From NCBI GenBank assembly GCA_027249445.1, contig JAPNTN010000049.1:1-38412 (forward strand): a stretch of 38,412 bases of DNA. The letters are read 5' to 3'. Position 1 is the stretch's first letter. Each line of letters opens with the position of its first letter. Of the stretch, positions 24,108 to 31,783 are shown piece by piece. Made by a program: the position numbers and the translations under genes. The notes beneath the pieces are model-generated. The model was not told the origin of the DNA. It was given only the letters and a program-made list of their open reading frames with translations, and searched no databases. The stretch is from Dehalococcoidia bacterium. GTDB taxonomy: Bacteria; Chloroflexota; Dehalococcoidia; Lucifugimonadales; UBA3495.

Positions 24108-25283
24108 GTGGACTTTCAGTTTAGTCCAGAAGACGATCTATTCCGTCAAGAACTTCGAAGCTTTGTAAAGTCCCAACTACCGGACAACTGGGAAGGTGGG
24201 GGACGATGGCCAGAAGAATGGGACTGGGATTTCACCATGTCCCTTAGGGGAAAACTAGCTGAGAAAGGCTGGTTAACCATGCATTGGCCAAAAGAATACG
24301 GCGGTCAGGACGCATCTCCAATCAAATCTGCTATTTATAATGAAGAACTAGCTTACATGCGAGCTCCAGGCAGAGATATATTCGGGGTACGCATGCTAGG
24401 GCCAACATTGATGATCCATGGCACAGAAGAACAGAAGAAGGTTCATTTACCGCCTATATCGCGAGGTGAAATTCAGTGGTGTCAAGGATACAGTGAGCCC
24501 GAATCTGGCTCAGATTTAGCATCATTAGCTACAAGGGCTGTACTTGATGACGACGAATATGTATTAAATGGAACTAAGATATGGACTACGTTAGGACATA
24601 GGGCTGATTGGATATTTTGCCTGGCAAGAACCGACCCAGACGCACCTAAACACAGAGGCATAAGTTTCTTGTTGATTGACATGAAGAGTCCTGGTATAGA
24701 AGTCCGTCCAATAGTAAATATGGCAGGGGGACACGAGTTCAATCAAGTTATATTCGACAACGTTAGAGTTCCAAGAAGTAATATAGTTGGAGAAGAGAAT
24801 AAAGGTTGGTACGTCGCAGTCACTTTGTTAGATTTCGAGAGATCCGGAATAGATTATTCCGCTATGGCACATAGATTACTAGATGAAATACGAGATTATA
24901 CCAGTGAAACAAAGATAAATGGCGAAGTAATGTTAGACATACCATGGGTTCAGGACTTGCTAGCTGATAGGTATGTGGAATGCGAAGCTGCTAGATTAAT
25001 GGCCTACAACGTGGCATACCTGCAGGGAGAAGACCTAGTACCAAACAAGGAAGCCTCAATAAGTAAAGTCTTTGGCAGTGAAACTCTACAAAGAGTAACT
25101 GAATCCGCTTTAAAAATACTTGGCCCATATGGATCAATCGGTCGAAATGATAAATGGGCACCATTACGTGGAAGGATACAAGAACACTGGATGATAAGCT
25201 TTTCTCACAAACTTGCCGGTGGAACATCCGAGGTCCAACGTAACATAATTGCGGGACGTGGACTTGATCTACCTAGAGGTTAG
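24108..25283 (+). CDS. acyl-CoA dehydrogenase
   Basis: 391 aa, GTG start with AAGAGG upstream. WPKEYGGQ, QGYSEPESGSDLASL, LNGTKIWTT and GGTSEVQRNIIA motifs. Confidence 0.9.
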   Translation: MDFQFSPEDDLFRQELRSFVKSQLPDNWEGGGRWPEEWDWDFTMSLRGKLAEKGWLTMHWPKEYGGQDASPIKSAIYNEELAYMRAPGRDIFGVRMLGPTLMIHGTEEQKKVHLPPISRGEIQWCQGYSEPESGSDLASLATRAVLDDDEYVLNGTKIWTTLGHRADWIFCLARTDPDAPKHRGISFLLIDMKSPGIEVRPIVNMAGGHEFNQVIFDNVRVPRSNIVGEENKGWYVAVTLLDFERSGIDYSAMAHRLLDEIRDYTSETKINGEVMLDIPWVQDLLADRYVECEAARLMAYNVAYLQGEDLVPNKEASISKVFGSETLQRVTESALKILGPYGSIGRNDKWAPLRGRIQEHWMISFSHKLAGGTSEVQRNIIAGRGLDLPRG

Positions 25284-25609
25284 GCAGCAAACAACTGTAT
25301 TTCATCTTGAGAAATATTTACTTCAACATCCTCACGACACCTACGCATAATACGAAATATAGTCCTTACAGTCACTGAGAATTTATCTGCTGTTTGCTCA
25401 ACAGTAAGATTTTCATTTTTCATTGCGGATAATATTTTTAGATCCTTCGCTATTCTGCGGTTCTTCTGATACCAGGTAGGATCATCATATTTACACTGTG
25501 GAAGCGGGCATTTTAAACACGATGACGAAACCTCGCAACCCGTATCTTCATAATGATAAAACTCTGGGATTGAATCCAATTCAGGCTTAGATATAATCAT
25601 ACTAACCAT
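25280..25609 (-). CDS. small Cys4 + helix-turn-helix protein (putative transcriptional regulator)
   Basis: 109 aa. N-terminal C-x5-C-x2-C-x4-C (CEVSSSCLKCPLPQC). C-terminal HTH-like LTVEQTADKFSVTVRTIFRIMRR. AGGTG SD. Its stop overlaps the convergent ACAD stop by 4 nt. Confidence 0.6.
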   Translation of the reverse strand: MVSMIISKPELDSIPEFYHYEDTGCEVSSSCLKCPLPQCKYDDPTWYQKNRRIAKDLKILSAMKNENLTVEQTADKFSVTVRTIFRIMRRCREDVEVNISQDEIQLFAA

Positions 25610-25610
25610 T

Positions 25611-25715
25611 TAGAACACCTCGAATATTTGTTCTATAGAACGTATGATCTTATTTTAGAACGCGCGTTCTATTACTGTCAATAGTTTTTGAGGCCAAATT
25701 AGCACTAGTGTTCTA
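25611..25715. promoter_or_regulatory. operator cluster: six TAGAAC/GTTCTA hexamers including two perfect palindromes
   Basis: TAGAAC at 25611, 25636 and 25656. GTTCTA at 25630, 25666 and 25710. They form GTTCTATAGAAC (25630-25641) and TAGAACGCGCGTTCTA (25656-25671) in the divergent intergenic region. Confidence 0.6.
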
Positions 25716-25740
25716 ATAAATTATGCCTAAGGAGATAATC

Positions 25741-29754: not shown

Positions 29755-29918
29755 CCATCCTCCATTTTCTGCATTAAACGAGAGCGAACGTAGTATATCT
29801 TATCGGATCATCGCTCTCAACAGATCCTTCATCACTACTCCCATTATTCTAGATCATTCAAAAAATCAAACGCCCCAACTACTATTAAGATGTTAAATAT
29901 TTGCACGCCTGTTTTATG

Positions 29919-29932
29919 TAGAATATATTCTA
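29919..29932. promoter_or_regulatory. perfect 14-bp palindrome TAGAATATATTCTA upstream of the B12-XRE regulator gene
   Basis: Lies in the 339-bp divergent AT-rich intergenic region. Same half-site family and N2 spacing as TAGAACAAGTTCTA at 31456-31469. It also reads as a -10-like TAGAAT on both strands. Confidence 0.45.
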
Positions 29933-30093
29933 TATATTGCCCAGTCATCAATCACGCCATTCGTGACTATTTCAAGCACAAAACAAACCGCACACTTCTT
30001 GCGTTTATAAAATATTTGTGTACAATATGGATAACATTGACGATGAACAAACACATCAAATACAGCTATCTATAGCACTGGAGGGACTCGTAT

Positions 30094-30972
30094 ATGAGTA
30101 CAGACGATTTAGTAACAACTAAACTGAGTGATCGTTACCTAGACGCTCTAATCCGGAGAGATCCCGACACCACGATATCTGTTATAGAAGATGCTATACG
30201 CCAAGGGCTGAGCCCAGTCAGTATACTGGTTTCAATCGTTGGCAAATCCCAGATTCGAGTCGGTGAAATGTGGCACACCGGTGAGATAAACATAGCGCAG
30301 GAGCATCTTGCAACCCAGATGACACTAGACGTTATGGACCAAATGAGACAGCGCTACCACGCTACCACGAAATGGGGAATCAAGGCAGTTGTAACATGCG
30401 TAGAAGGTAATTTCCATTACGTGGGATCCCGAATGATCGCAGACCTTTTACTAGTAGACGGATGGGACGTTGAATTCCTAGGAGCAGACACACCAACTCA
30501 CGATTTAGTTGAGTTCGTACGCCAGGGCCACCCCGAACTTGTCGCCTTATCCGTTTCTATGAAAGAAGACCTTAGTACAGCAGAGCAAATAATCACGCAA
30601 TTGAGAAGACTGCCCGATTCACCCAGAATATTACTAGGAGGATACGGCGTTACCGATACCGATCAAGTTGAGGGACTTGGACCGGACGGATTTGCCATCG
30701 ACGCATACAGTGCAATCCAGGAGGCTCGCCGCCTTGGAGGACTCTCAAAGGATCCTTTAAGTCTAAATGAATACTTAATAGTGATGGGCTCCAGAGTACA
30801 GGATTTGAGAAAAGGAAGAAGTTGGAATCAAGAACAATTAGCCCAAGCCTCTTCATTGGACAGAACCTACATAAGTGCCGTCGAGAACGGGAAACAGAAC
30901 CTGACGATCGGGGTAGTCTTAAAACTTGCCGAGGCCTTAGAAGTACCCATCGGACAGCTCCTTTCAGACTAA
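30094..30972 (+). CDS. CarH-like cobalamin-binding photoreceptor module fused to a C-terminal XRE-family HTH (putative light-responsive transcriptional regulator)
   Basis: 292 aa with GGAGGG SD. W60-x9-E70-H71 (WHTGEINIAQEH, nt 30271-30306). B12 Rossmann domain with EGNFHYVG (His108, nt 30415-30417), VALSVSM and ILLGG. C-terminal Cro/C1 HTH QEQLAQASSLDRTYISAVENGKQNLT (about nt 30763-30966). Confidence 0.8.
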   Translation: MSTDDLVTTKLSDRYLDALIRRDPDTTISVIEDAIRQGLSPVSILVSIVGKSQIRVGEMWHTGEINIAQEHLATQMTLDVMDQMRQRYHATTKWGIKAVVTCVEGNFHYVGSRMIADLLLVDGWDVEFLGADTPTHDLVEFVRQGHPELVALSVSMKEDLSTAEQIITQLRRLPDSPRILLGGYGVTDTDQVEGLGPDGFAIDAYSAIQEARRLGGLSKDPLSLNEYLIVMGSRVQDLRKGRSWNQEQLAQASSLDRTYISAVENGKQNLTIGVVLKLAEALEVPIGQLLSD

Positions 30973-31037: not shown

Positions 31038-31232
31038 TTACGCAGCTTTCCTACGAGGCCTACGGCGACGAACCTGCTCAGGTATAAATACGTTCTCATC
31101 GATTTCCTGAGGCTCAGATACTGTCCCAGCGAAATAACGACCGCATTGAACACACGTTACAAACGGACCAAAACTATCCCTGCTCTCATATAGATCTCCC
31201 TTACATTTCTGACACGACTTAAACCAGAACAC
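31038..31232 (-). CDS. small zinc-ribbon protein with Arg-rich C-terminal tail
   Basis: 64 aa, GTG start with GAGGTGA SD. CQKC-x16-CVQC zinc ribbon. Tail RRRRPRRKAA. Confidence 0.6.
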   Translation of the reverse strand: MFWFKSCQKCKGDLYESRDSFGPFVTCVQCGRYFAGTVSEPQEIDENVFIPEQVRRRRPRRKAA

Positions 31233-31380
31233 TTCTCACCTCTCTTCAGCAGGTCTGTATATTTTGGATTCACCCGCTAAATCTATTTCGGACTTGCCTT
31301 ATCTCTACACCTACACAGATCATCTGTTTTTAATTTAATGTCTAACAAATCCTACGTTTCAACCAATTTGTACGATATAG

Positions 31381-31410
31381 TTGACAAACAAGTCCTTAGA
31401 TGTCTAGAAT
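31381..31410 (+). promoter_or_regulatory. near-consensus sigma-70-type promoter (TTGACA-18 nt-TAGAAT) facing the DUF378...photolyase genes
   Basis: TTGACA at 31381-31386 and TAGAAT at 31405-31410. The next downstream gene starts at 31586. Confidence 0.5.
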
Positions 31411-31423
31411 AATACACATAACG

Positions 31424-31469
31424 TAGAACACTGTCAACATTTAAGTTAATTAATGTAGAACAAGTTCTA
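31424..31469. promoter_or_regulatory. operator-like sites: TAGAAC (31424-31429) and palindrome TAGAACAAGTTCTA (31456-31469)
   Basis: Located just downstream of the putative -10. Same half-site as the 25.6-kb cluster. TAGAAC is followed by ACTGTCAA (31430-31437), an octamer also present at 25674-25681 next to GTTCTA. Confidence 0.5.
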
Positions 31470-31585
31470 TAAAAACTAATAAAGAACTGTAATCAGTGAA
31501 AGGAGATATTTATAAACACCAGGTGTTCCACAATTAACGACACAAGGTTGTATAACTTAATCTACATAAATGAAAGGACATAATT

Positions 31586-31783
31586 ATGACAATGGTGCAA
31601 AACATAGCAATTATTCTCGCAGCCGTAGGGGCGCTCAATTGGGGTTTGGTGGGCTTGTTTAAATTTGACTTGGTGGCCCTCATTGCGGGAGGCAAATCAT
31701 TTGGAGAAGTAAATATTCTATCTAGGATCATCTATCTGCTAGTAGCAGTATCGGGCGTTGTAGCAGTAACAACCTTAGCTTGA
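31586..31783 (+). CDS. DUF378-family small membrane protein
   Basis: 65 aa. AAVGALNWGLVGLFKFDLVA is the characteristic DUF378 motif. Two TM helices. AAAGGA SD. Confidence 0.75.
   Translation: MTMVQNIAIILAAVGALNWGLVGLFKFDLVALIAGGKSFGEVNILSRIIYLLVAVSGVVAVTTLA

Follow-up and report, generated by a model that had tools for sequence, protein, structure and literature searches.

Paired 18-bp inverted repeats over back-to-back promoters beside a B12-XRE gene of a marine Dehalococcoidia bacterium: a candidate operator array for a proposed XRE-type B12 photoreceptor

Introduction

Light control of transcription through vitamin B12 is known solely for the MerR-type CarH/LitR proteins, which act on direct repeats. 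Tetramers or dimers of CarH with bound adenosylcobalamin (AdoCbl) occupy operators that overlap promoters and are disrupted by light; the operators are tandem 11-bp direct repeats (nnnnTnnACAn), and two divergent promoters are controlled in myxobacteria (PMC9304148). Cobalamin domains fused to a helix-turn-helix (HTH) at either end have been listed by sequence mining and are uncharacterised, and GxxW, EH, GxxH and GxxxP (with W131, E141, H142 and H177 in TtCarH) have been proposed as the signature of light-responsive cobalamin domains (PMC11796333). A literature search found no paper describing operators of such cobalamin-domain/HTH fusions. In this study, we describe a fusion gene of this kind, B12-XRE, and the 353-bp spacer near it (31233-31585) that separates a zinc-ribbon gene from a DUF378 gene, on a stretch of 38,412 nucleotides from a Dehalococcoidia bacterium (contig JAPNTN010000049.1 of assembly GCA_027249445.1; hereafter the window). 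We consider, with a probability of roughly 0.6, that the spacer holds two back-to-back sigma-70 promoters under an array of 18-bp operators; B12-XRE would bind these in the dark, shutting both promoters, and release them in the light.

The window is the complete contig C49 of a metagenome-assembled genome (G000; 1.82 Mb, 74% complete, 43.6% G+C). This genome is marine and of the SAR202 type, and its close relatives carry the labels Dehalococcoidia or SAR202. Three genes frame the spacer and its proposed regulator.

30094..30972, plus strand: B12-XRE gene (Pfam B12-binding_2, B12-binding and HTH_3); a CarH-type module with a C-terminal XRE domain; the proposed binder.
31038..31232, minus strand: zinc-ribbon gene of 64 amino acids (aa), an open reading frame (ORF) with a GTG start at 31232; the target of the minus-strand promoter.
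31586..31783, plus strand: DUF378 gene (Pfam DUF378, 3e-19) with its ATG at 31586; it heads the gene string that leads to a photolyase.

On the one hand, this locus resembles the CarH/LitR systems of Thermus thermophilus, Bacillus megaterium and Myxococcus xanthus. The cobalamin module is of the same kind (Wx9EH and HxxG), the sites lie over the -35 and -10 boxes of sigma-70 promoters of photoprotection genes, their number suggests an oligomer, and a site upstream of the regulator's own gene suggests autoregulation. On the other hand, B12-XRE has a C-terminal XRE/Cro-C1 HTH and is without the N-terminal MerR domain, its match to the NCBIfam CarH model reaches 69 bits against a cut-off of 400 bits, its putative targets comprise, in place of carotenoid genes, those for DUF378, DICT-USP and photolyase, and its proposed operators consist not of tandem direct repeats but of 18-bp inverted repeats, paired at a distance of about 32 bp. 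We concluded that B12-XRE works like CarH but is not a member of the CarH family.

The closest solved relatives of its HTH are found in a second group, the controller proteins (C.AhdI, C.BclI and C.Esp1396I) and the repressors of the phage 434 and lambda type. These proteins bind inverted repeats as dimers, and two dimers bind cooperatively to adjacent sites over promoter elements. Here, by contrast, the light-sensitive B12 domain would supply the dimerisation or oligomerisation, and the paired sites are not adjacent but 31-32 bp apart (42 bp in one relative).

Results

A promoter scan of the spacer gave two near-consensus sigma-70 promoters, whose box spacings of 18 and 17 nt lie within the 16-18 nt typical of such promoters.

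31381..31410, plus strand: P(DUF378), TTGACA-18-TAGAAT, with TTGACA at 31381-31386 and TAGAAT at 31405-31410; 11/12 consensus positions.
31409..31437, minus strand: P(zinc ribbon), TTGACA-17-TATTAT, with TTGACA at 31437..31432 and TATTAT at 31414..31409; 11/12 consensus positions.

The -10 boxes of the two promoters overlap, the DUF378 string being read rightwards and the zinc-ribbon gene leftwards. In the alignment with a genome of the same genus (G001, protein 93% identical) and with G002, the hexamers of P(DUF378) are invariant, as are those of P(zinc ribbon), which is kept in G001; the G002 spacer is identical across all the promoter and TAGAAC elements noted here. P(DUF378) aligns with TAGACA-17-TAGTAT in relatives, and the same promoter fronts DUF378 in about 25 related loci. 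Predicted transcription starts lie near 31417 for P(DUF378), which leaves about 169 nt of leader before the ATG, and near 31402 for P(zinc ribbon), about 170 nt before the GTG. These predicted leaders (31417-31585 and 31232-31402) are nearly equal and unusually long, the DUF378 leaders of relatives being about 25-45 nt; an Rfam search of both returned nothing at E <= 1.

The divergent arrangement recurs elsewhere. A paralogous locus in G001 has the same back-to-back promoters, and in locus L079 and genome G006 an operator-flanked TTGACA-17-TACAAT promoter stands directly in front of a zinc-ribbon homologue, a gene that is also found inside the operon of the G001 paralogue.

The spacer had been the subject of an original prediction, which proposed a near-consensus plus-strand promoter overlapped by TAGAAC/GTTCTA operators, with sites downstream of the transcription start acting as a repressor roadblock. 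Its promoter is upheld, being conserved and the same as that before DUF378 in other genera, and its positions for the promoter, TAGAAC (31424-31429), TAGAACAAGTTCTA (31456-31469), AGAAC (31483-31487) and the octamer ACTGTCAA (31430-31437 and 25674-25681) are all correct. The hexamers proved non-random, conserved and operator-like. However, the recognised unit is not the bare hexamer but an 18-bp palindrome of which TAGAAC forms the core, with the family consensus TGTAGAA-N4-TTCTACA. Six such sites (S0-S5) lie between the zinc-ribbon and DUF378 genes and two more upstream of the B12-XRE gene. The ranks below are those of matches in G000 to weight matrices built solely from other genera and scanned over 3.64 million positions of this genome.

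29917..29934, no strand: site upstream of the B12-XRE gene, TGTAGAATATATTCTATA; 1 mismatch; rank 8-10; overlaps a weak promoter-like TTTGCA-18-TATATT.
30019..30036, minus strand: site-2-type element, TGTTATCCATATTGTACA on that strand; rank 7 (site-2 matrix); a partly conserved block in G001.
31339..31356, minus strand: S0, CGTAGGATTTGTTAGACA on that strand; 30 bp upstream of S1; rank 47; 15/18 identical in G001.
31369..31386, plus strand: S1, TGTACGATATAGTTGACA; corresponds to site 1 of the family and runs at its 3' end into the -35 of P(DUF378); rank 24; 15/18 identical in G001.
31401..31418, no strand: S2, TGTCTAGAATAATACACA; counterpart of the family's site 2; contains the -10 boxes of both promoters; rank about 600, weak; 18/18 identical in G001.
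31422..31439, no strand: S3, CGTAGAACACTGTCAACA; includes TAGAAC at 31424; 2 mismatches to TGTNGAANNNNTTCNACA; rank 482; 17/18 identical in G001.
31454..31471, no strand: S4, TGTAGAACAAGTTCTATA; includes the palindrome at 31456-31469; 1 mismatch to the 18-bp consensus; 17/18 identical in G001.
31549..31566, no strand: S5, TGTATAACTTAATCTACA; 20 nt upstream of the DUF378 start codon; 2 mismatches; rank 158; 18/18 identical in G001.

S1 matches site 1 of about 25 relatives in position and form, and its start-to-start distance to S2 is 32 bp (31-32 bp in the relatives). S3 overlaps both the -35 of P(zinc ribbon) and the spacer of this promoter; in the predicted DUF378 transcript it covers about +5 to +22. 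S4 follows 32 bp further on, upstream of the same -35 and at about +37 to +54. TAGAAC at 31424 and the palindrome at 31456-31469, which had been read as sites downstream of the DUF378 promoter, belong mainly to a divergent promoter that the original prediction had missed, where they are located at the -35 box and upstream of it. The outer bases of S4 are the same as those of the 29917 site (TGTAGAAYNNRTTCTATA). S5 is unchanged in G001 within an otherwise diverged stretch; the block 31545-31585 is also fully conserved there. As for the single hexamers, that at 31424 is kept in G001 and the palindrome at 31456-31469 has one change (TCGAAC), whereas AGAAC at 31483 is lost and is probably a chance occurrence rather than a site.

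In form, these elements are operators of the XRE/Cro-C1 type: inverted repeats of 14-18 bp with fixed outer half-sites and a variable centre, close to the regulator gene. Their centres vary (TATA, CAAG, CTCTAG and GCATAG) while the arms are kept, and they lie within 1.5 kb of the B12-XRE gene. In G001, the 29917 palindrome reads TTTCGAATATATTCGACA (TCGAATATATTCGA), with A changed to C in the left arm and T to G in the right arm, and its symmetry is retained. The 30019 element overlies a possible proximal -10 of the B12-XRE gene (TACAAT, 30021-30026), which is a weak candidate with a -35, TTGCGT, that matches at only 3/6 positions.

The same sites recur at other B12-XRE loci. We scanned one genome per species for B12-XRE relatives, of which 170 were found and 80 loci kept, and extracted the upstream regions of all DUF378 genes for comparison. 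In about 25 Dehalococcoidia loci of other genera, DUF378 and B12-XRE point away from each other on either side of a spacer of about 120 bp, so that the sites stand directly upstream of the B12-XRE gene. Site 1 of these loci, TGT[AT]GAAnATAnTnGACA, supplies the -35 of the DUF378 promoter at its 3' end, and site 2, 31-32 bp away from start to start, is TGTTAnnAnTATACAnCA and contains the -10 (TAGTAT or TATTAT); TTGACA and TAGAAT of the window align with these elements. The clearest case is L079, where two perfect 18-bp palindromes, TGTAGACTCTAGTCTACA and TGTAGAGCATAGTCTACA, flank and overlap TTGACA-17-TACAAT, 42 bp apart, directly after the B12-XRE gene and before zinc-ribbon and DICT homologues. 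In the 868 kb of sequence surrounding B12-XRE genes, 8 copies of the pattern TGTAGA-N6-TCTACA (<=1 mismatch) were found compared with about 1 in shuffled sequence, an approximately 8-fold excess.

In the paralogous locus of G001, whose B12-XRE protein is 47% identical, the corresponding position over the back-to-back -10 boxes is taken by another palindrome, GTCTAATATATTAGAC, which is how diverged repressor-operator pairs would be expected to look. This second light locus of the sister genome (L041, G001:C32, 6034-10562) contains DUF378, DICT, zinc-ribbon, NmrA/DUF2867, B12-XRE, DUF523/DUF1722 and epimerase genes, and its own palindrome, GTCTA-N6-TAGAC, is found both at its promoter and in front of the gene for the regulator.

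Two other searches of the relatives were set aside. A scan with the hexamer pair TAGAAY-Nx-RTTCTA gave few matches beyond the genus, this model being too narrow. A count of exact palindromes with arms of 5-6 nt over the 80 B12-XRE loci was headed by GTCATTCCCGCG...GCGGGAATCCAGAG, which resembles repetitive extragenic palindromes (REP), and by the anticodon arms of transfer RNA (tRNA) genes, neither of them operators. Two abundant palindromic repeat families resembling REP or miniature inverted-repeat transposable elements occur in higher-GC Dehalococcoidia (L048, L059, L066-L075, L088 and others) in many copies per 12-kb locus; they read GTCATTCC[CG]G[CG]...[CG]C[CG]GGAATCCAGAG and CCCCTCTCCC...GGGAGAGGGCTAGGGTGAG. 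The window itself carries two tRNA genes on the minus strand at 533-698 (Rfam RF00005, 67 and 64 bits).

In terms of statistics, the signal is in the placement of the sites and not in their number. The window has no excess of single hexamers (25, with 19.7 +/- 3.9 expected), and their density is 0.63 per kb in intergenic and 0.62 per kb in coding DNA. Clusters of at least three hexamers occur at only two places in G000, both in the window: 25611-25715 (six) and 31424-31469 (three). By our Poisson estimate, however, about 0.5 clusters of three hexamers in 46 bp are expected per genome, and such a cluster is therefore weak evidence by itself. An exact scan of the genome for TAGAAY-N(0-4)-RTTCTA, the pairing put forward in the original prediction, gave 5 matches, of which 3 are intergenic and all in the window (25656, N4; 29919, N2; 31456, N2), while the other 2 are coding (N3). 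With the matrices from other genera, about 0.06 of the top 160 matches would be expected by chance in the 692 bp concerned, where those at 30019, 29917, S1, S0 and S5 were found.

The sequences of G000 and G001 share 92.6% identity over the six sites and 65.7% over the rest of the spacer (Fisher p = 1.8e-8), but this comparison is not fully blind because the set of sites was assembled after the G001 alignment had been seen. That caveat is one of several points that weigh against our interpretation. The conservation of sites 1 and 2 could be due in part to the promoter boxes inside them. S2, S3 and S4 score low with the other-genera matrices (ranks of about 480-650, with S4 below the threshold), and they are assigned because of their half-site pattern and their conservation within the genus. 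Across the genome, the 18-bp pattern occurs 4 times with <=1 mismatch compared with 2-12 times in shuffles, and 130 times with <=2 mismatches compared with 80-109. Furthermore, the B12-XRE loci of Bdellovibrionota are without the 18-bp motif, their operators being probably different, and the unlinked DUF378 genes of G006 and G048 (genus g5) have no clear sites upstream.

A genome-wide regulon search of G000 with the 18-bp pattern and the matrices yielded no convincing further members. No site was found upstream of crtB (C81), and a candidate at C144:9578 was rejected since it adjoins an unrelated small HTH gene. Outside the window, the sole perfect match to TGTNGAANNNNTTCNACA in G000 (C44:29761-29778, TGTTGAATAGATTCAACA) falls inside a cbiD-like gene that belongs to a cluster for cobalamin biosynthesis, and may either have arisen by chance or link B12 synthesis to the B12 photoreceptor.

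All four elements of the signature of light-responsive cobalamin domains are present in B12-XRE (GEMW at residues 57-60, EH at 70-71, GNFH at 105-108 and GADTP at 130-134), and the W, EH, H and G do not vary among 5 homologues with identities as low as 33%. Pfam places HTH_3/XRE at residues 236-288 and finds no MerR domain. The best NCBIfam match of the B12 module is CarH (68.9 bits), and matches in the PDB include photocobilin and CarH for this module and restriction-modification controller proteins for the HTH. Among 61 relatives, DUF378 was found only in genera g1 and g5, the two genera of the family in which full-length B12-XRE was found.

The other hexamer cluster of the window, 6 kb away from the spacer sites, belongs to a different system and lies in front of the following gene.

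25280-25722 of the window: gene for a 109-aa protein with Cys4 and HTH (weak sigma-70 region 4 and Mor-like matches), together with its array.

B. subtilis and clostridia share GAAC-N4-GTT[CT] as their LexA box (PMC4234289). The box in front of lexA is TATTAGAACATATGTTTGGAG in G000 and AGAACATnnGTTTT in G001, G008, G009, G014 and G019, with AGAAC-N4-GTTYT in 5/5 of these relatives. Work by Fernandez de Henestrosa and co-workers in 2002 is said to have found the GAAC-N4-GTT[CT] box in Dehalococcoides as well. Judged by its sequence, the cluster at 25611-25715 is a LexA array (GAAC-N4-GTTC) and would be under SOS control, because it has the N4 spacing, the same box as lexA here and in the five relatives, and a family-wide gene downstream. 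The 109-aa gene is present in 36/36 family genomes searched, most of them without a full-length B12-XRE where this was also searched. In 16/18 loci shown, its promoter reads TTGACA-N7-AGAAC-N4-GTTCTAtaAT, followed by TTAGAACAnnnGTTTyGGAG and the ATG, that is, two N4 boxes; in G000 the array is expanded to 4-6 half-site pairs. The gene has the appearance of an SOS gene that is conserved in this Dehalococcoidia family and is uncharacterised. Its product, which had been suggested as a candidate binder of the spacer sites, is a poor one and was rejected, the gene being family-wide and itself behind LexA-type boxes.

The octamer that had been noted as common to both clusters is present at both places. 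Nevertheless, the link is coincidental and without regulatory meaning, because ACTGTCAA is at each place TTGACAGT on the minus strand, the -35 of P(zinc ribbon) at 31430-31437 and that of the 109-aa gene promoter at 25674-25681. Within 31233-31585, no match to the LexA box (N4, <=2 mismatches) was found, and the intergenic matches of the window lie only at 25620-25715. The recA upstream region of G000 gave no clear LexA box. A further candidate box, TAGCACATATGTTCTA, was found outside the window (G000:C107:1775-1820) before a small unannotated ORF, with a second TAGAAC 35 bp upstream.

Discussion

Our results are best read as a dark-state repressor released by light, as the original prediction had suggested, because the adjacent B12-XRE has the full CarH-type light-sensing signature. 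The operators form two pairs, S1/S2 and S3/S4, each 32 bp apart, or about three helical turns. When bound, S1 and S2 would occlude P(DUF378) at its -35 and -10, and S2 and S3 would occlude P(zinc ribbon), with S4 pairing with S3. By analogy with CarH, we expect that in the dark an oligomer of AdoCbl-bound B12-XRE would hold XRE dimers on the paired sites and keep both promoters shut. In the light, cleavage of the Co-C bond would make the oligomer dissociate, and with the loss of cooperative binding, transcription of the operon would follow. Autoregulation by the repressor is suggested by the sites at 29917 and 30019. As for the roadblock, it is the S1/S2 pair on the -35 and -10 of P(DUF378) that is conserved in the family. 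Accordingly, occlusion of the promoter would be the primary geometry, while S3, S4 and S5 in the DUF378 leader may add to the repression by a roadblock. In this scheme we infer the identity of the binder, its oligomeric state, its dependence on light and both transcription starts.

The sites could be real operators and yet be read by another protein, with B12-XRE acting elsewhere or only indirectly. Candidates are the zinc-ribbon protein of 64 aa, which has a poly-Arg tail, the DICT-USP protein and regulators encoded elsewhere in the genome. Zinc-ribbon and DICT homologues accompany the same loci, so the neighbourhood does not single out B12-XRE, and the zinc-ribbon gene, directly behind the operators, could regulate itself. 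We regard this as unlikely, however. An XRE helix-turn-helix is the classic reader of inverted repeats of 14-18 bp, and that of B12-XRE has restriction-modification controller proteins as its nearest solved kin. In the approximately 25 relatives it is the B12-XRE gene that the sites immediately precede. Zinc-ribbon homologues are numerous and scattered, with matches in 58/61 genomes and up to 9 per genome, and the 109-aa protein is found mostly in genomes without these loci. Slightly less probable still is that there is no dedicated operator at all, the conserved blocks being the -35, -10 and UP-like elements of overlapping promoters and the leader, and the palindromes a by-product of promoter symmetry. 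Sites 1 and 2 do each include the -35 of one promoter and the -10 of the other, and the overall counts of the 18-bp pattern are near the shuffled expectation. On the other hand, S4, the 29917 site and the two palindromes of L079 lie partly or wholly outside promoter hexamers and are nonetheless perfect or near-perfect over 18 bp. The matched change in both arms at 29917 preserves symmetry and not a promoter box, and site 1 is conserved best at TGTAGAA, a sequence that does not correspond to any promoter element.

The spacer sites might also be taken as LexA boxes, so that the photolyase string would be induced by DNA damage in the manner of the cluster at 25611-25715. TAGAAC is identical to the left arm of the lexA-front box of G000 (TAGAACATATGTTTGG) and to the boxes at 25620-25715, and a damage regulon could plausibly include a photolyase. 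We consider this highly improbable, since the LexA boxes of the family, both at lexA and at the 109-aa gene, have the N4 spacing that the spacer is without. The palindromes at 31381-31487 share the TAGAAC/GTTCTA arm with the LexA (Cheo) SOS box GAAC-N4-GTTC, but they have N2, extend to TGT...ACA over 18 bp in a form not found at lexA, and recur next to B12-XRE genes. Whether the common arm is more than a coincidence is a separate matter: the photoreceptor operators could have arisen from SOS boxes by a change of spacing, or LexA and B12-XRE could compete for half-sites. Both ideas are very doubtful in our view. If such competition did occur, a single pair of back-to-back promoters would combine the signals of DNA damage and visible light in the control of this operon.

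Conclusions

In summary, B12-XRE appears to be a repressor that would bind paired 18-bp inverted repeats over two back-to-back promoters. Additionally, our analysis separates a light regulon from an SOS regulon that uses look-alike half-sites on one contig. The locus and its relatives offer a testable operator (paired TGTAGAA-N4-TTCTACA) and promoter layout for an XRE-type B12 photoreceptor, which would allow direct biochemical tests and could provide a second, orthogonal green-light switch for optogenetics. It would also give roles in the light response to the DUF378, DICT-USP and zinc-ribbon proteins of abundant, uncultured marine Dehalococcoidia.

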